A stretch of 8,336 nt of DNA from a virus. Lineage: Duplodnaviria; Heunggongvirae; Uroviricota; Caudoviricetes. This document shows, one piece after another, positions 1,835 through 8,295 of the stretch. Position 1 is the first letter of the stretch. The number at the start of each line of letters is the position of its first letter. Both the position numbers and the translations under genes were made by a program. The stretch lies in the IMG/VR virus record IMGVR_UViG_3300012983_000662. One strand, given 5' to 3'. The notes under the pieces are model-generated. The model was not told the origin of the DNA. It searched no databases and saw only the letters and a list, made by a program, of their open reading frames with translations.

Positions 1835-2017
1835 ATGTTTCTGATAATTCTCGCGTCACTGGTGGGCGTGCTGGGTGCGCTTTTGCTGGCGTATGGTGCT
1901 TGGCTGATTTATCCCCCGGCGGGTTTTGTTGTTGCCGGGGTGCTGTGCCTGTTCTGGTCGTGGCTGGTGGCGCGATATCTCGACCGTACACAGCCGTCTG
2001 TCGGCGGAGGTAAATAG
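1835..2017 (+). CDS. Small hydrophobic membrane protein, 60 aa, two predicted transmembrane helices, function unknown
   Basis: GAGGT at 1826-1830, 4 nt before ATG 1835. Stop TAG 2015-2017 overlaps the portal GTG start at 2017 (TAGTG). CTG-rich codon usage like the flanking genes. Sequence [60 protein letters not shown] has two hydrophobic stretches and a short charged C-terminal tail. Confidence 0.6.
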
Positions 2018-3258
2018 TGTTCTTTTCGGGATTATTTCAACGAAAAAGTGACGCGCCGGTGACCACGCCAGCAGAGCTGGCGGATGCTATCGGGCTGTCA
2101 TATGACACCTATACCGGAAAGCAGATCAGCAGCCAGCGGGCCATGCGACTGACGGCGGTTTTTTCCTGCGTCAGGGTGCTGGCAGAGTCTGTCGGGATGT
2201 TGCCCTGCAATCTGTATCACCTGAACGGCAGCCTGAAACAGAGAGCCACCGACGAACGTCTGCATAAGCTGATCTCCACGCATCCCAATGGCTATATGAC
2301 GCCGCAGGAGTTCTGGGAGCTGGTGGTCACCTGTCTGTGCCTGAGGGGAAACTTTTACGCCTACAAAGTGAAAGCATTTGGCGAAGTGGCTGAATTGCTG
2401 CCCGTCGATCCCGGCTGTGTGGTACCGAAGCTTAACAGTAGCTGGGAACCGGTCTATCAGGTCACATTCCCGGATGGCTCCACGGATGTACTGAGCCAGG
2501 AGGATATCTGGCATGTGCGCACGCTGACGCTGGACGGACTGGTGGGGCTGAATCCCGTCGCCTATGCCCGCGAGGCAATATCGCTGGCGGCAGCGACCGA
2601 AGAGCACGGGGCCAGACTGTTCAGCAATGGTGCGGTGACGTCGGGTGTGTTGCGTACAGAGCAGACGCTGTCAGATCAGGCTTACGAGCGCCTGAAGAAA
2701 GATTTTGAGGAGCGTCACACCGGGCTTGGCAATGCTCACCGCCCGATGATCCTTGAGATGGGGCTGGACTGGAAGTCGATGGCGCTGAACGCCGAGGACA
2801 GCCAGTTCCTGGAAACCCGCAAGTTTCAGCTTGAAGAAATCTGTCGTCTGTTCCGGGTACCGTTGCACATGGTGCAGAACACCGATCGCGCCACCTTCAA
2901 CAATATCGAAGAACTGGGGCTCGGATTTATCAACTATTCACTGGTGCCGTATCTGACCCGCATCGAACAGCGGATCAACACCGGACTGGTACGAAAAAGT
3001 AAGCAGGGCGTTTATTACGCCAAATTTAACGCCGGGGCGTTACTGCGCGGGGATATGAAGTCCCGTTTTGAAGCCTACGCCACCGGGATTAACTGGGGAA
3101 TTTACTCTCCCAATGACTGCCGCGACCTGGAAGATATGAATCCGCGTCCCGGTGGGGATGTCTATCTCACACCAATGAACATGACCACGAAACCCTCCGA
3201 TGGCAGTAAAGCCGGTAAGCAGAAGGATAACGCCAATGCAGACGAAACAACGTCTTGA
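2017..3258 (+). CDS. Portal protein (HK97-family-like), 413 aa
   Basis: GTG start at 2017 with GGAGG at 2006-2010, 6 nt upstream. Size and position (after terL, before prohead protease) fit an HK97-type portal. N-terminus MFFSGLFQRK... is portal-like. No search was run. Confidence 0.9.
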   Translation: MFFSGLFQRKSDAPVTTPAELADAIGLSYDTYTGKQISSQRAMRLTAVFSCVRVLAESVGMLPCNLYHLNGSLKQRATDERLHKLISTHPNGYMTPQEFWELVVTCLCLRGNFYAYKVKAFGEVAELLPVDPGCVVPKLNSSWEPVYQVTFPDGSTDVLSQEDIWHVRTLTLDGLVGLNPVAYAREAISLAAATEEHGARLFSNGAVTSGVLRTEQTLSDQAYERLKKDFEERHTGLGNAHRPMILEMGLDWKSMALNAEDSQFLETRKFQLEEICRLFRVPLHMVQNTDRATFNNIEELGLGFINYSLVPYLTRIEQRINTGLVRKSKQGVYYAKFNAGALLRGDMKSRFEAYATGINWGIYSPNDCRDLEDMNPRPGGDVYLTPMNMTTKPSDGSKAGKQKDNANADETTS

Positions 3259-3886
3259 TGTACCGCTGAGTCTGAAATCTGTCAGTGACTCCGGTGAGTT
3301 TGAAGGGTATGGCTCCGTCTTTGGTGTAAAGGACAGCCACGATGATGTGGTGATGTCCGGGGCATTTGCTGCTTCCCTGCGGGCGTGGAGTGACAGAAAA
3401 GCGTTACCTGCGCTGCTCTGGCAGCACCGCATGGATGAGCCCATCGGTGTTTACACCGAAATGAAGGAAGACGATGTCGGGCTTTACGTCAGGGGGCGGC
3501 TGCTCATTGATGATGATCCCCTCGCAAAACGCGCACATGCACATATGAAGGCCGGTTCGTTAACCGGCCTTTCTATTGGGTACGTCCTGAAAGACTGGGA
3601 ATACGACCGGAGCAAAGAAGCCTTTCTGCTGAAAGAAATCGACCTCTGGGAAGTCAGTCTGGTGACGTTCCCGTCTAACGACGAGGCGCGGATCAGCGAC
3701 GTCAAGAACGCGCTGGCCCGCGGGGAAATCCCCGAACAGAAAAAAATCGAAAGAGTCCTGCGTGATGTTGGACTCTCCCGTACCCAGGCCAAAGCATTCA
3801 TGGCCGGGGGCTATGGCGCACTGTCCCTGCGCGACGCTGAGGATGTGGGCTCTGCACTGAATGCACTGAAAAATCTGAACTTCTAA
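3236..3886 (+). CDS. Prohead maturation protease (HK97 gp4-like, S78/U35-type)
   Basis: ATG 3236 preceded by GAAGGA at 3222-3227; it overlaps the portal 3' end by 23 nt. An in-frame ATG at 3200 (ORF track) has no Shine-Dalgarno motif. Motifs EFEGYGSVFGVKDSHDDVVMSGAF and LTGLSIGY resemble the conserved His and Ser regions of HK97-type prohead proteases. Located between portal and capsid genes. Confidence 0.85.
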   Translation: MQTKQRLDVPLSLKSVSDSGEFEGYGSVFGVKDSHDDVVMSGAFAASLRAWSDRKALPALLWQHRMDEPIGVYTEMKEDDVGLYVRGRLLIDDDPLAKRAHAHMKAGSLTGLSIGYVLKDWEYDRSKEAFLLKEIDLWEVSLVTFPSNDEARISDVKNALARGEIPEQKKIERVLRDVGLSRTQAKAFMAGGYGALSLRDAEDVGSALNALKNLNF

Positions 3887-3900
3887 TCAGGAGAAATACG

Positions 3901-5106
3901 ATGGCGGTAGATATTAAAGATGTCGAACAGGTCGCGCAGGAGCTGCAGCAGAAGTTTGACGACTTCAAAGCAAAGAACGACAGGCGCGTGGATGCGATTG
4001 AGCAGGAAAAAGGCAAACTTGCCGGGCAGGTGGAAACCCTGAACGGAAAACTCAGCGAGCTGGAAAATCTCAAAAGCGATCTTGAAAAAGAGCTGCTTGA
4101 GCTGAAACGTCCGGCAGGTGGTGTGCAAAATAAACTGGCCACTGAGCATAAAGAGGCTTTTGTGGATTTCCTGCGTAAAGGCCGTGAAGACGGTCTGCGC
4201 GATCTGGAGCGCAAGGCATTGCAGGTGGGCACCGATGAAGATGGAGGCTACGCCGTGCCGGAAGAACTGGATCGCAACATTCTCAACCTGCTGAAAGATG
4301 AAGTGGTGATGCGTCAGGAAGCCATGGTGATCACCGTTGGCGGTTCCGACTACAAAAAACTGGTGAATCTGGGCGGTACGGCTTCCGGATGGGTGGGGGA
4401 AACGGATACGCGATCCCAGACTGCTGCCTCAAAACTGGGACTGATTGAACCTTTCATGGGGGAAATCTACGGTAACCCGCAGGCCACCCAGAAAATGCTG
4501 GATGATGCCTTTTTCAACGTGGAGGCCTGGATCAACAGCGAGCTGGCAACCGAATTTGCCGAACAGGAAGAAATTGCCTTTACCACCGGCGATGGTACCA
4601 AGAAGCCGAAAGGGTTCCTGGCGTATGAGTCCACTGATGAAACCGACAAGGTCCGGGCGTTCGGCAAACTTCAGCATATTGTATCCGGCGAAGCGACGGC
4701 AGTGACCGCAGATGCCATTATCAAACTGATTTACACGCTGCGTAAGGCACACCGCACCGGCGCGAAGTTCATGATGAACAACAACAGCCTGTTTGCCATT
4801 CGTCTGCTGAAAGACACCGAGGGTAACTATCTGTGGCGTCCGGGGCTGGAGCTGGGACAGCCGTCCTCTCTGGCGGGTTACGGTATCGCTGAAAACGAAC
4901 AGATGCCGGATATTGCCGCTGATGCGAAAGCCATTGCATTTGGTAACTTCAAACGGGGTTACACCATCGTTGACCGTATCGGTACCCGCATTCTGCGTGA
5001 CCCGTACACCAATAAACCGTTTGTCGGTTTTTATACCACCAAGCGCACCGGCGGCATGCTGGTCGATTCGCAGGCCATCAAACTGCTGAAGATTGCAGCG
5101 GCGTAA
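3901..5106 (+). CDS. Major capsid protein, HK97-fold, with N-terminal coiled-coil delta (scaffolding) domain, 401 aa
   Basis: AGGAG at 3889-3893, 7 nt before ATG 3901. The first ~100 residues are rich in E/K/L heptad-like sequence (VEQVAQELQQKFDDFKAKNDRRVDAIEQEKGKLAGQVETLNGKLSELENLKSDLEKELLELK). No separate scaffold gene lies between protease and capsid. Size and synteny fit HK97-type capsid proteins. Confidence 0.9.
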   Translation: MAVDIKDVEQVAQELQQKFDDFKAKNDRRVDAIEQEKGKLAGQVETLNGKLSELENLKSDLEKELLELKRPAGGVQNKLATEHKEAFVDFLRKGREDGLRDLERKALQVGTDEDGGYAVPEELDRNILNLLKDEVVMRQEAMVITVGGSDYKKLVNLGGTASGWVGETDTRSQTAASKLGLIEPFMGEIYGNPQATQKMLDDAFFNVEAWINSELATEFAEQEEIAFTTGDGTKKPKGFLAYESTDETDKVRAFGKLQHIVSGEATAVTADAIIKLIYTLRKAHRTGAKFMMNNNSLFAIRLLKDTEGNYLWRPGLELGQPSSLAGYGIAENEQMPDIAADAKAIAFGNFKRGYTIVDRIGTRILRDPYTNKPFVGFYTTKRTGGMLVDSQAIKLLKIAAA

Positions 5107-5156: not shown

Positions 5157-5345
5157 ATGATCCTGAAACAAGATCTGAAATGGTCACCGGACGGTATGCG
5201 TGTTGAGATCATTCGGGCCGGTGAGTATGAAGATAAAGAATTACCCGAACGGGTACGCGAAATTGCCACTGCAGCTGGGATTGTCTCTGATAAGAGAACA
5301 CCTGTTGCGCGGGGGGCTGATAAGTCTAAAAAACAGCATTCATAG
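5157..5345 (+). CDS. Hypothetical small protein, 62 aa, basic C-terminus
   Basis: AGGTGA at 5144-5149, 7 nt before ATG 5157. Stop TAG 5343-5345 is 11 nt before the next start. Fills the gap between capsid and connector genes. I recognise no family. Confidence 0.45.
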   Translation: MILKQDLKWSPDGMRVEIIRAGEYEDKELPERVREIATAAGIVSDKRTPVARGADKSKKQHS

Positions 5346-5356
5346 AGGTTGCCCAA

Positions 5357-5662
5357 ATGATGCCCACTCTGGAAGAGCTTCGTGTTCAGTGCCGGATTGA
5401 TGATGACAATGAACAGGAGAATTCTCTTCTTATGATGTATCTGGCTGCTGCCAGGGAAGAGGCTGAAAAGTTTTTAAACCGGACGCTTTACGATGAAACT
5501 GTTTCTGAGCAGGATACGACCGGGCTTGTAATAACACCGCTGATAAAGCTGCGTCTTATGCAACTGGTTGGCTACTGGTACGAGAACAGGGAAATGCAGG
5601 ATGCAGTGCCTGATTTTTTCTATACCGGACTGCGGATGTATCGGTTTCATCCCGGAACATAG
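5357..5662 (+). CDS. Head-tail connector protein (phage gp6-like), 101 aa
   Basis: N-terminal pattern TLEELRVQCRIDDDNEQENSLLMMYLAAAREEAEKFLNRTL matches the signature of gp6-like connector / DNA-packaging proteins (LEE.K..LRID.D...L..L..AA). GAGG at 5345-5348 upstream. Position right after the capsid gene. Confidence 0.75.
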   Translation: MMPTLEELRVQCRIDDDNEQENSLLMMYLAAAREEAEKFLNRTLYDETVSEQDTTGLVITPLIKLRLMQLVGYWYENREMQDAVPDFFYTGLRMYRFHPGT

Positions 5663-5670
5663 GAGGATTC

Positions 5671-6009
5671 ATGCAGGCAGGAAGATTACGTGATCGTGTG
5701 GTTATTCTGAATGCCACCACCGTTCGGTCTCCGTCAGGGCACCCTGTGGAAACAATGACGGAGGGGGCAACCATATGGGCAGAAGTTAAGGGGATCAGTG
5801 GCAGGGAGAGAATATCCGGAGGCGCAGAAACTGCTCAGGCTACAGTGAGGGTCTGGATGAGATTCCGGCGAGATGTGACAGCAACTTCATGTCTGAAAGT
5901 GCTGACTGGTGCATTCAAAGGCGCGATTCTGAGTATAGACGGTCCGCCGATACCGGATGTTCGTGCCACCCGGCTTGAGATACTCTGTTCTCAGAAGGGG
6001 AATGTGTGA
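5671..6009 (+). CDS. Head-tail adaptor / head closure protein (Phage_H_T_join-like), 112 aa
   Basis: AGGAGG at 5661-5666 before ATG 5671. N-terminal MQAGRLRDRVVIL and internal TIWAEV...AQATVRVWMRFRRDV match the typical pattern of this family. Unusually rich in AGA/AGG/ATA codons. Confidence 0.7.
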   Translation: MQAGRLRDRVVILNATTVRSPSGHPVETMTEGATIWAEVKGISGRERISGGAETAQATVRVWMRFRRDVTATSCLKVLTGAFKGAILSIDGPPIPDVRATRLEILCSQKGNV

Positions 6010-6455
6010 TGGATTTCAGTCTTGATTTTTCAGGTCTGGCGGATATTGCACGGGATCTGGAGACGCTCAGCAGGGCAGAAAACAATAAGGTACTGCGCGA
6101 TGCCACCCGTGCCGGTGCTGAAGTTATGCGGGATGCAGTTGTTGAACGTGCGCCGGAGCGAACCGGGAAACTGAAGAAAAATGTGGTTGTTCTCACTCAG
6201 CCTTCAAAGCGTCGGGGGGAAATTATCTCGGGAGTCCACATTCGCGGACGAAATCTGCGAACCGGAAACAGTGATAACAGCATGAAAGCCAGCGATCCCC
6301 GAAATGCGTTTTACTGGCGCTTTGTCGAACCGGGAACGGTAAACATGCCTGCTCACCCGTTCATTCGTCCGGCGTTTGATACGACAGAGGAACTGGCGGC
6401 GCAGGTTGCCATACAGCGAATGAATCAGGCTATTGATGAGGTCTTAAGTAAATGA
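6009..6455 (+). CDS. HK97 gp10-like tail component / neck protein, about 148 aa
   Basis: ATG 6009 overlaps the upstream stop TGA 6007-6009 (TGATG), with AAGGGG at 5995-6000. The ORF track begins 3 nt earlier at GTG 6006. Motif FYWRFVEPGTVNMPAHPFIRPAFD resembles the conserved core of the HK97 gp10 family. Confidence 0.75.
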   Translation: MDFSLDFSGLADIARDLETLSRAENNKVLRDATRAGAEVMRDAVVERAPERTGKLKKNVVVLTQPSKRRGEIISGVHIRGRNLRTGNSDNSMKASDPRNAFYWRFVEPGTVNMPAHPFIRPAFDTTEELAAQVAIQRMNQAIDEVLSK

Positions 6456-6796
6456 GAGAGACCACACTGTATTCCCTGCTGTCTCAACTGGCCGGAGGAC
6501 AGGTTTATCCTTATGTGGTCCCGCTGACGGAGGGAAAGCCTGCGGTATCTCCGCCATGGCTGGTATTTTCTGTGGTCTCTGACACTGCGTCTGATGTGCT
6601 TGATGGTCAGGCTGAATCCAGAATTACCGTGCAGATCGATGTCTGGGCAACAGTACCTGATGACGCAGATGATATCCGTGAGCAGGCGCTTGATGCGGTA
6701 AGGCAACTGGCACCCTCCGTTATTTCTAAAACGCAGGGTTATGATCCTGATTCCCGTCTGAGCAGAGCCATGCTTGAATTTCAGGTAATAGCCTGA
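6452..6796 (+). CDS. Tail terminator / completion protein (gp11-like, DUF3168-type), 114 aa
   Basis: ATG 6452 overlaps the upstream stop TGA 6453-6455 (ATGA). N-terminal LYSLLSQLAGGQVYPYVVP pattern and the position between the gp10-like and major tail genes fit the family. Confidence 0.6.
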   Translation: MRETTLYSLLSQLAGGQVYPYVVPLTEGKPAVSPPWLVFSVVSDTASDVLDGQAESRITVQIDVWATVPDDADDIREQALDAVRQLAPSVISKTQGYDPDSRLSRAMLEFQVIA

Positions 6797-6816: not shown

Positions 6817-6844
6817 ACCCGCCGCTGGCGGGTTTTTTTATTTT
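6817..6844 (+). terminator. Rho-independent terminator-like hairpin with long T-tract
   Basis: Stem CCCGCC (6818-6823) / GGCGGG (6827-6832) with a 3-nt loop, then TTTTTTTATTTT (6833-6844). The minus strand has no equivalent T-tract, so it is oriented with the operon. Confidence 0.65.
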
Positions 6845-6856
6845 CAGGAGACGAGT

Positions 6857-7561
6857 ATGTCCTCTAATTTTGAGCGTTCGCAACTGACGAAAATTATGAT
6901 TTCGTCTGCACCGGTAACAGCAGAAACCCTGGATTCTGCCAGCTTTCTTGGGCTGAGCTGTACAATCAAAGAAGTGCAGTTTACCGCAGGACAAAAGCAG
7001 GATATTGATGTCACCACGCTGTGTTCTGTTGAGCAGGAAAATATTAACGGTCTTGGTGCCGCGTCAGAGATTTCCATGTCAGGCAACTTTTACCTCAATG
7101 CTGCCCAGAACGCGTTGCGTAGTGCCTATGACAATGACACCACGTATGGCTTTAAAGTTATTTTTCCGTCAGGCAACGGATTTACCTTTATGGCAGAGGT
7201 GCGTCAGCATACCTGGTCTGCAGGAACCAATGGTGTTGTGGCTGCAACGTTTTCCCTGCGTCTGAAAGGTAAACCTGTGCTGACGACAGAGCCGCTAAAA
7301 GTGAAGGTCGATTTAAACAGCACGCTGCAGATTTCTGCCGGAGCGAAACTTGAAATGGCGGTTGAGGCTGCGGGTGGTGTGCCGCCTTATTCTTATGTCT
7401 GGAAGAAAGGTGGATCTCCTGTTTCCGGACAGACGGCGGCAACGTTCAGTAAGGCATCCGCAGTATCCGGTGATGCGGGTGCATATACCTGCGAGATTTC
7501 TGATTCAGCAAGCCCTGTTAACAAGGTGACCTCCACTTCCTGCACTGTTACCGTCAGTTAA
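6857..7561 (+). CDS. Major tail (tube) protein with C-terminal Ig-like domain, 234 aa
   Basis: AGGAG at 6846-6850, 6 nt before ATG 6857. Positioned between the tail terminator and the tail chaperone genes. The C-terminal ~90 residues (PPYSYVWKKGG...SGDAGAYTCEISD...CTVTVS) carry Ig-fold hallmarks: a conserved Trp and a D.G.Y.C F-strand motif. Confidence 0.7.
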   Translation: MSSNFERSQLTKIMISSAPVTAETLDSASFLGLSCTIKEVQFTAGQKQDIDVTTLCSVEQENINGLGAASEISMSGNFYLNAAQNALRSAYDNDTTYGFKVIFPSGNGFTFMAEVRQHTWSAGTNGVVAATFSLRLKGKPVLTTEPLKVKVDLNSTLQISAGAKLEMAVEAAGGVPPYSYVWKKGGSPVSGQTAATFSKASAVSGDAGAYTCEISDSASPVNKVTSTSCTVTVS

Positions 7562-7575
7562 TGAGGATAGATGTG

Positions 7576-7947
7576 ATGACTAAAAATATCCGTAATCTGG
7601 CACTGGCAACGATGTCGGGGTTTCGCCATAAAACCGTTGATGTGCCTGAATGGGAGGGAGCAACGGTTGTGTTACGGGAACCTTCTGCAGAAGCCTGGTT
7701 GCGCTGGCAGGAGATCGTTAAAGCAAAAGATGATGAGACACCGTTATCCGTTGCGGAGCGCGCCCGCCGAAATCTGGAGGCAGATGTTGAACTGTTCATT
7801 GATGTTCTGTGTGATACCGGACTGCAACCTGTATTTTCAGAGGATGATCGTGAACAGGTGATTGCCGTGTATGGCCCGGTGCATGCGCGGCTTCTTCGGC
7901 AGTCTCTGGAACTGATCAGTGATGCCGGCGAGGTTAAAAAAAAGTAG
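7576..7947 (+). CDS. Tail assembly chaperone (lambda gpG functional analogue), zero-frame product
   Basis: GAGGA at 7563-7567, 8 nt before ATG 7576. In-frame alternative starts exist at ATG 7561 (overlapping the major tail stop, TAATG) and GTG 7573. Acidic protein ending ...AGEVKKK and terminating inside a slippery A-run. Located directly upstream of a -1 frame ORF and the probable tape-measure gene. Confidence 0.75.
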   Translation: MTKNIRNLALATMSGFRHKTVDVPEWEGATVVLREPSAEAWLRWQEIVKAKDDETPLSVAERARRNLEADVELFIDVLCDTGLQPVFSEDDREQVIAVYGPVHARLLRQSLELISDAGEVKKK

Positions 7948-8249
7948 CGCTTCCGGGGATGCGTTTTCTGATGATGCTGGCGCTCAGGATGGGGCGCACA
8001 TTGTCAGAGTTACGCCGGGAAATGTCCGCATCAGAAATCATGATGTGGGCAGAATTTGACAGGTTCAGCCCGCTGGGGGACGAACGGGCTGATATCCGGG
8101 CTGCCCAGATTGTTTCAGCTATTTACGGTGCGCAGGGGGTTAAAGTACTACTGAATGATGCGCTTCTTCAGTGGGAACAAGAGCAGACAGAAGGCGTCTC
8201 AGATCCATTTGCCGGACTGGAAAACGCGCTTTTAATAGTGTCTCAGTGA
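7576..8249 (+). CDS. Tail assembly chaperone frameshift fusion (lambda gpGT analogue), produced by -1 ribosomal slip at 7938-7944
   Basis: The ORF 7959-8249 is in the -1 frame relative to the G-like ORF and is open back through the slip site (codons after the slip read GTA GCG CTT CCG GGG ATG...). Its own ATG at 7959 has no convincing Shine-Dalgarno motif. Predicted junction: ...GEVKKK-VALPGMRFLMML... Confidence 0.65.
7938..7944 (+). promoter_or_regulatory. Programmed -1 ribosomal frameshift slippery heptamer A_AAA_AAG
   Basis: Sequence GTTAAAAAAAAGTAG: zero-frame codons AAA AAG at 7939-7944 are followed by stop TAG 7945-7947. The heptamer fits the X_XXY_YYZ rule and is identical to the E. 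coli dnaX slip site. Confidence 0.7.
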
Positions 8250-8257
8250 GTCAACAT

Positions 8258-8279
8258 AACCGCTTCGGCGGTTTTTTTT
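8258..8279 (+). terminator. Terminator-like hairpin with UUCG tetraloop and T8 tract
   Basis: AACCGC-TTCG-GCGGTT (stem 8258-8263 / 8268-8273, loop TTCG 8264-8267) followed by eight T (8272-8279), 9 nt after the stop of the frameshift ORF. Confidence 0.55.
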
Positions 8280-8295
8280 CGTCCGGAGAATGAGT

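Follow-up and report, generated by a model that had tools for sequence, protein, structure and literature searches.

The window analysed here, a stretch of 8,336 nucleotides, holds a gene (6857-7561) whose 234-aa product is very probably a major tail tube protein; the phage would be an HK97-like temperate siphophage integrated in Escherichia coli. At its C-terminus the protein bears an immunoglobulin (Ig) domain that likely serves weak adhesion to surface carbohydrates. An Ig-like domain on a tail tube of this type is already known. The new details are that members of one tube family may have or lack a C-terminal module and can exchange it for another, always at the same junction after a conserved 'KGKP', and that the Ig part is under purifying selection several-fold weaker than that acting on the tube.

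The gene and its surroundings

From ORF, Pfam and PHROGs assignments the window covers the genes for the head and for the proximal part of the tail in a temperate siphophage. Its features, with those of the tube gene, are as follows.

66-1823: large terminase
2017-3258: portal
3200-3886: prohead protease
3901-5106: HK97-fold major capsid protein
5357-5662, 5671-6009 and 6006-6455: head-tail connector proteins
6452-6796, + strand: tail terminator (tail completion gp17-like), upstream neighbour of the tube gene (Pfam Tail_completion_gp17, E 3e-11; PHROG 347 'tail terminator')
6857-7561, + strand: gene of the major tail tube protein (234 codons and a stop), orthologous to HK97 gene 12 (ORF list, PHROG 158, identity to HK97 gp12)
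6857-7276, + strand: tube (TTP) domain, residues 1-140 (invariant columns, Foldseek, PHROG 158)
7277-7297, + strand: linker, residues 141-147 (VLTTEPL), the junction where relatives end or switch module
7298-7558, + strand: Ig domain of immunoglobulin-superfamily (IgSF) type, Ig_2/I-set-like, residues 148-234 (Pfam Ig_2, PDB matches, model)
7400-7402, + strand: codon of W182, core tryptophan of strand C (invariant in full-length homologues)
7472-7492, + strand: D206-A-G-A-Y-T-C212, the D-x-G-x-Y-x-C motif of strand F (read from the sequence)
7576-7947, + strand: tail assembly chaperone G, downstream neighbour (Pfam Phage_TAC_1, E 2.8e-58)
7959-8249: tail assembly chaperone T

The order of the genes (tail terminator, tube, chaperones G/GT, tape measure) is the same as in HK97. 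A heptamer scan located the slippery site A_AAA_AAG at 7938-7944 within gene G, leading to a 224-aa G-T fusion. The true start of chaperone G is likely 7576, preceded by GAGGA at 7564-7568; the Phage_TAC_1 match begins at residue 6 of the longer chaperone G ORF, and the RefSeq start equals 7576. The prophage of E. coli RM11911 carries a 100% identical copy of the tube gene, named 'immunoglobulin domain-containing protein' in RefSeq, and downstream in that prophage a 1,091-aa tape measure protein is followed by tail tip proteins. The inducible E. coli phages vB_EcoM-606R7 and phi467 carry this exact gene and are 97-98% identical to the window across its whole length.

The tube domain

The earlier note had proposed a major tail tube protein with a tube domain of about 140 residues, and both proposals proved correct. 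The 234-aa protein matches PHROG 158 'major tail protein' with an E value of 1.5e-108, is 72% identical to HK97 gp12, lies in a syntenic module and finds lambda gpV by fold, while the homology of relatives that consist of a tube domain only ends after residue 140. All 45 invariant columns of the alignment fall in residues 1-139. The AlphaFold model of the full protein, built on a 38-sequence alignment, has a mean pLDDT of 80, with residues 150-234 at 90-96, and is poor in confidence only in residues 1-7 and 46-67. The latter stretch coincides with the position of the long beta2-beta3 loop described for tube proteins (PMC8718954). A Foldseek search of the PDB with the full model ranked lambda gpV first, at its full length (7t4f_A, 250 aligned columns, E 1.6e-8); 8k36_A, the lambda tail tube, was another match (TMt 0.54). 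The rmsd of the full-length matches is large (12-13 Å) owing to the arbitrary relative orientation of the two domains, and the Ig domain was therefore modelled and searched separately. In this predicted model, as distinct from a solved structure, residues 1-140 have the fold of tube proteins.

The Pfam tube families all scored below their curated cut-offs: Phage_TTP_11 at 22.6 (28.4), Phage_tail_2 at 20.4 (23.8), TTP_12 at 16.0 (26.1) and Phage_tail_3 at 14.3 (24.2). The close relatives L031 and L032 pass Phage_TTP_11 at 42-45 bits. A search of NCBIfam with the 234-aa protein returned no family. The tube identity hence rests on PHROGs, on HK97 homology, on the predicted fold and on synteny, which together support the assignment of residues 1-140 as a siphophage tail tube domain.

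The C-terminal domain is of immunoglobulin-superfamily type

The hallmarks on which the earlier note had based an Ig-like domain at 7289-7558 (residues 145-234) are present, namely YVWKKGG at residues 180-186, GDAGAYTCEISD at 205-216 and the terminal CTVTVS at 229-234. W182 is unchanged in all 35 full-length homologues aligned, and D206, G208, Y210 and C212 are each conserved at 90% or more in the alignment of homologues. Across genera the conserved positions are W182, G173, G174, P177, D216 and the D-x-G-x-Y-x-C motif. The HMM search that had been proposed as a check yielded Pfam Ig_2 above its curated cut-off of 27, at 28.9 bits with the whole protein and 30.5 bits with the isolated domain. 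Within the Ig clan only Ig_2 passes; I-set (23.2 against 23.7) and Ig_3 (29.3 against 30) fall just under their cut-offs.

Searches against solved structures point to the same class. With phmmer against the PDB, residues 140-233 match the decoration protein pb10 of phage T5 (8zvi_a, E 4e-16), and further matches were the NMR structure of the Ig-like C-domain of pb10 (5lxk_A, E 1.7e-14), the multi-Ig Hoc-like gp20 of Shigella phage Sf14 (9c2d_S, E 8e-28) and carcinoembryonic antigen. The identities of the T5 pb10 and Sf14 gp20 chains are confirmed in PMC11313276 and PMC11821841. Residues 124-233 match PHROG 2973 'Hoc-like head decoration' (E 9e-24). The other check that had been suggested, structure prediction, agreed with the HMM search: modelled alone by AlphaFold, the C-terminal 95 residues form an all-beta domain with a pLDDT of 95, which superposes on solved Ig domains with TM 0.82-0.86 and rmsd 1.3-1.8 Å. 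Among these are the Ig C2-type domain (Ig2) of MALT1 (3bfo_A, TM 0.82, rmsd 1.4 Å), chain 9d7z_K of a phage Moo19 capsid entry (TM 0.85) and chain 9e99_K of a phage N4 capsid entry (TM 0.86); the matches include as well the T5 pb10 C-domain (39% identity) and many I-set domains, such as those of titin, sidekick and Dscam. Hoc and decoration proteins are among the matches of the domain in BFVD, a library of predicted viral structures, with an rmsd of about 1 Å.

The canonical disulfide between strands B and F is absent, as there is no Cys between residues 57 and 211 and hence none in strand B; the only Cys of the Ig domain besides C212 is C229, in strand G. The B-F disulfide is not required of Ig-like domains that fold in the cytoplasm. 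A Big_2 identity of the domain, as in lambda gpV, was considered and rejected, no match to PF02368 being found at E ≤ 0.1 while the Yersinia relatives L031 and L032, taken as positive controls, scored 39.8 and 43.7 bits. As far as the entry descriptions show, none of its 50 best fold matches is a Big_2 structure. The identification of residues 148-234 as an immunoglobulin-superfamily-type domain, appended to the tube and not part of its core, is thus supported.

A fixed junction and an exchangeable module

The start of the C-terminal domain at residue 145, as given earlier, needs a small correction: the boundary lies slightly before it, after residue 140, where the homology of tube-only relatives ends ('LKGKP'), and the first Ig strand of the model begins at residue 148. 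The linker between the two points is the most variable segment of the protein, with a mean column entropy of 1.87 vs 0.72 for the tube. Both the tube-only relatives and those carrying Big_2 diverge from the 234-aa protein directly after the conserved 'KGKP' (residues 137-140). For example, the tube-only homologues P0110, P0112 and P0113 (147-148 aa) keep 78-79% identity through residue 139 and then end; more generally, relatives with a tube domain 76-80% identical to that of the 234-aa protein end at 147-151 aa.

The extent of this exchange was assessed in a survey of one genome per species, which gave 36 loci in Enterobacterales whose ORFs were read and scanned against Pfam. The Ig type of the 234-aa protein is present in 13 of the 36 loci (233-236 aa), and a C-terminal domain is absent from 17 (147-162 aa). 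Four loci, all from Yersinia, carry Big_2 at the same junction (PF02368, cut-off 22.8; the two of them that were scanned scored 39.8 and 43.7 bits). The remaining two are interrupted by a contig end in one case and disrupted in the other. In the tube-only relatives for which gene calls are available (L001-L006) the chaperone gene begins 9-11 nt past the tube stop, and the contigs of P0110, P0112 and P0113 show this same distance and an identical order of genes; the possibility of an Ig domain hidden downstream and reached by frameshift was rejected on the ground of this short distance. The comparison of relatives' tail genes therefore bears out the view that the domain is appended. Moreover, since intact syntenic relatives lack it, the Ig domain is dispensable for building a tube of the HK97 gp12 type.

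Selection and distribution

The two parts of the gene evolve at different rates. Among 10 close alleles from E. coli and phages, a sample whose members are not independent, dN/dS is 0.06 for the tube (codons 1-140) vs 0.36 for the Ig part (codons 145-234). Among homologues the mean pairwise identity is 73% in the tube part and 53% in the Ig part. Where it is present, the Ig domain is kept by selection. Its most variable parts, along with the linker, are the F-G loop and strands A/A', and positions 151, 154, 158-161 and 217-224 are variable. Conservation is seen in the B-C loop, 'GGxxPY'. Some alleles look mosaic: P0008 is 99% identical in the tube and 79% in the Ig part, and P0009 83% and 93%, respectively. 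The divergence of tube and Ig parts differs (Fisher test, p < 0.05) in five of nine allele comparisons, with p between 0.0007 and 0.025. On this nucleotide evidence the gene may be a mosaic of its two halves.

The gene is present in 873 of 5,426 complete E. coli genomes, 870 of which hold a full-length copy (at least 80% of the query covered), and frameshifted variants are few and rare. Many of the sampled E. coli records are named 'immunoglobulin domain-containing protein' in RefSeq, and others 'hypothetical protein' or 'phage tail protein'. The E. coli hosts are gut strains from humans, cattle, pigs and poultry. The same type of Ig domain occurs in prophages of Pectobacterium, Dickeya, Symbiopectobacterium and Erwinia, which are plant- or insect-associated genera, and tblastn against phage genomes showed that Stx1a- and Stx2c-converting phages use the same tail protein family.

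Display and function of the Ig domain

From these data a simple arrangement can be proposed. Residues 1-140 would build the tube, and a short linker would lead from them to one C-terminal IgSF-type domain, residues 148-234. Because both parts are read in the same frame with no stop between them, every subunit should carry the Ig domain, which would stand on the tube exterior in six copies per ring. Lambda-type tails, with the lambda tape measure of 853 aa, are the basis for estimating the number of rings; the 1,091-aa tape measure would then correspond to about 35-40 rings, and so to about 200 or more Ig domains per tail. The earlier note had made a point of the domain being encoded in frame instead of being added by frameshift. 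The single uninterrupted ORF agrees with this, but the arrangement is not special, since in-frame encoding is what most phage Ig domains have (PMC9022992), examples being the Big_2 domains of lambda gpV and T5 pb6 (PMC8718954).

The most likely job of the Ig domain would be adhesion to surface carbohydrates, a hypothesis of the literature that we extend to the 234-aa protein because of what has been written on lambda gpV, SPP1 gp17.1*, T4 Hoc and T5 pb10. The domains may bind carbohydrates in a weak, multivalent and reversible manner, and binding of this kind could make adsorption better or faster.

An alternative, which we regard as unlikely, is a mainly structural role, in which the Ig domain would stabilise or stiffen the tube or aid its assembly via neighbouring subunits, as proposed for the C-domain of lambda gpV. 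Lambda gpV is the structure that the full-length model matches best, and in lambda the Ig domain runs along the tube and contacts a loop of the adjacent subunit; its removal lowers activity 100-fold, although tails still form (PMC8718954). The survey speaks against such a role, as relatives with 76-80% identical tube domains have either no C-terminal domain in intact syntenic modules or an unrelated Big_2; the existence of these tube-only and Big_2 relatives argues that the tube does not depend on the Ig domain. The faster evolution of the Ig part does not favour it either, nor does the fact that comparable domains of Sf11, T5 and YSD1 are too flexible to be modelled.

Quite improbable, in our estimate, is that the Ig domain binds glycans of animal mucus or epithelium and so would retain the phage in gut mucus, as proposed for T4 Hoc. 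By its match to PHROG 2973 the domain groups in sequence with the Hoc-like and pb10 decoration proteins, and the E. coli hosts live in the gut. Binding of Hoc to mucin is cited in PMC9022992, and adherence to epithelium rose when phage Ig-like proteins were displayed, T4 Hoc serving as the control (PMC13370021). However, the same domain is found in the prophages of the four plant- or insect-associated genera, for which animal mucus is not the habitat. Mucus adherence may thus be possible for phages of gut E. coli, and is unlikely as a general role.

That the Ig domain is a passenger of recombination, neutral and without function, is very improbable. Many close relatives do without it, and a similar domain of SPP1 is dispensable; yet its dN/dS of 0.36 indicates purifying selection, its core residues are conserved across genera, and the full-length gene persists in 870 E. 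coli genomes with rare frameshifted variants.

Hardly credible, finally, is that only some of the subunits carry the Ig domain owing to a -1 slip at T_TTA_AAC (7312-7318, codons 152-154), the reverse of what occurs in SPP1; it is equally hard to credit the product that such a slip would make, an Ig-less tube subunit of 164 aa and about 17.5 kDa ending ...DLNQHAADFCRSET, next to a full-length protein of about 24 kDa. This X_XXY_YYZ heptamer, the sole one found in the scan of the gene, is in frame just past the domain junction, with a stop 10 codons on in the -1 frame, and is kept in 10 of 10 close E. coli alleles as T_TTA_AAC or T_TTA_AAA. Nevertheless, chance alone should put about 0.9 heptamers of this kind into a gene of 234 codons, this one is missing from HK97 gene 12 and nine other enterobacterial homologues, and the folding of the next 82 nt is not better than that of shuffled sequences (z 0.30); for these reasons it was judged a chance occurrence and rejected as a programmed slip site. 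In E. coli, U_UUA_AAC is not known to promote slippage efficiently. Nor does the gene show a frameshift-appended Ig domain of the SPP1 gp17.1* type, being a single uninterrupted ORF with no stimulatory structure.

Surface-carbohydrate adhesion as the preferred role can be taken one step further, tentatively and as a reading that we hold to be improbable. The slot after 'KGKP' might be a cassette, either empty or filled with an IgSF-type or a Big_2 module, and the fast-evolving surface of the Ig domain might tune glycan adhesion and thereby host range or niche; a remote variant would add Ig-less subunits made by the slip at T_TTA_AAC. If the reading were true, sticking to O-antigen, capsule or gut mucus would be tuned above all by strands A/A' and the F-G loop, and the Ig module would determine host range or niche a second time, over the length of the tail, in HK97-like phages, among them the long-tailed Stx1a- and Stx2c-converting phages. 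The locus is a tidy natural experiment, with near-identical tube cores that carry an IgSF-type domain, a Big_2 domain or none.

Comparison with known systems

The value of the Ig domain as a discovery is small, given that siphophage tail tubes with Ig-like domains have been on record since 2006 and that HK97 gp12 is listed by name. A review of 2022 (PMC9022992; its Table 3 follows Fraser et al. 2006) gives HK97 gp12, ORF64 of BP-4795 and gp12 of PY54 as major tail proteins that carry an I-set domain, and Ig-like domains are present in about 70% of the tube proteins of 20 clusters of enterobacterial siphophages (PMC9022992). The closest of these systems is the major tail subunit gp12 of HK97 (AAF31091.1), whose gene 12 was located by tblastn against phage genomes. 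It is also 234 aa long, is 72% identical over 234 of 234 residues with no gaps and has the same two-domain layout, with a gp11-like terminator upstream and G/GT chaperones downstream. The two differ only by allelic divergence, greater in the Ig part, and by the lack in HK97 of T_TTA_AAC at codons 152-154.

Lambda gpV is built in the same way: in every subunit a tube domain of about 150 aa precedes a single Ig-like domain, about 90 aa long and in the same frame. Of the systems compared it is the one whose function is best documented, through the deletion of its C-domain. However, the sequence identity is only 15-16%, and the Ig class in lambda is Big_2, unlike the IgSF type of the 234-aa protein. 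A carbohydrate-binding role has been proposed for the C-domain of gpV (PMC8718954). In the 238-aa tube protein gp24 of Shigella phage Sf11 (9occ_A), residues 126-237 align with residues 114-231 of the 234-aa protein (E 1.7e-11); the C-terminal Ig module is of the same type, whereas the tube domain is only distantly related. Residues 7-161 alone of gp24 were modelled in the structure, its C-terminal module being flexible (PMC12724387).

In SPP1, gp17.1* also places a C-terminal Ig-fold decoration on a siphophage tube, and this has been proposed to bind carbohydrates of the cell wall. The SPP1 domain differs in being an FN3 domain reached through a +1 programmed frameshift and so present on about a quarter of the subunits (PMC8718954), in contrast to the IgSF-type domain encoded in the single ORF described here. 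SPP1 virions without the FN3 extension are fully infectious (PMC8718954), so that phages may do without a domain of this kind under laboratory conditions.

The Ig domain itself has homologues in the C-domain of T5 pb10 and in Hoc-like head decoration proteins such as Sf14 gp20 (E 1e-14 to 1e-28), with which it has in common the motif GGxxPYxYxW...DAGxYxC. The context is different: T5 pb10 and the Hoc-like proteins decorate the capsid by means of a separate capsid-binding domain, whereas in the 234-aa protein the Ig module is fused to the tail tube.

Alternative C-terminal modules of the tube protein

The domain that follows the tube domain of the major tail tube protein is not of one kind among the relatives. 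In the proteins encoded by Yersinia similis, Y. vastinensis, Y. massiliensis and Y. proxima (loci L031, L032, L033 and L037; 1501-2208) a Big_2 domain replaces the IgSF-type domain. These proteins belong to the same family, with residues 1-141 being 55-56% identical, and the Big_2 domain is attached at 'KG(K/R)P', the same junction as that of the IgSF-type domain. A third type of C-terminal module is carried by P0097 and P0105, two homologous tube proteins of 237 aa in which identity amounts to 73-75% in the tube part and to only 28-30% in the Ig part. The module is missing the Y-x-C cysteine, and its only matches, to Ig_3 and SprB, are both below threshold.

A few copies of the tube gene, members of small clusters, are damaged: in P0025, P0045, P0088 and the Leclercia adecarboxylata NCTC13032 locus (L013) the gene has either a frameshift, located in the Ig part or shortly upstream of it, or an early disruption. 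These copies represent either decaying prophages or sequencing errors.

Candidate frameshift heptamers and the tail chaperone genes

Two heptamers are considered here, one inside the tube gene and one at the end of G, the first of the tail assembly chaperone genes.

7312-7318: in-frame heptamer T_TTA_AAC, tube gene codons 152-154
7938-7944: -1 slippery heptamer A_AAA_AAG of canonical type, last codons of G
7945-7947: stop codon of G
7959-8249: T open reading frame

A -1 slip at the first heptamer would produce a tube subunit of 164 aa devoid of the Ig domain. The heptamer is retained in 10 close alleles of the gene; it was not found in HK97 or in other homologues, and no RNA structure was detected 3' of it (z 0.30). 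Its presence was judged to be a chance occurrence.

At the second heptamer, a -1 shift yields a G-T fusion of 224 aa. The longest G reading frame begins with the ATG at 7561 and overlaps the stop codon of the tube gene; its Pfam match runs from residue 6 on. The RefSeq start is the ATG equivalent to position 7576, and a Shine-Dalgarno sequence, GAGGA, occupies 7564-7568. The real start of G is probably 7576, rather than 7561.

Neighbouring features and comparison with HK97

1835-2017: open reading frame for a hydrophobic protein of 60 aa, flanked by the terminase and portal genes
5157-5345: open reading frame for a 62-aa protein, between capsid and connector genes
6817-6843: terminator-like G+C hairpin followed by a T run, between the tail terminator and tube genes
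8258-8283: terminator-like G+C hairpin followed by a T run, directly 3' of T
L043:18053-20755: 900-aa protein, tail tip region of the Escherichia coli RM11911 prophage; RefSeq name, 'sulfur carrier protein ThiS'

Both small proteins are annotated as hypothetical in RefSeq, and a function was found for neither. The protein behind the 'ThiS' label has almost certainly been misnamed and belongs to the tail tip or the central fibre. The same prophage carries a 'scabin-related ADP-ribosyltransferase' gene, directly upstream of the lysis cassette, and has IS100 (IS21 family) inserted in the stretch that separates the lysis genes from the HNH/terminase genes (L043:1-46 and 2390-4191).

The hairpin at 6817-6843 may be a leaky terminator setting the expression of the tube gene; its position is the same as that of the annotated 'putative terminator' of HK97. 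A fusion by -1 shift, like that of G and T, is annotated for HK97 gp13/gp14.
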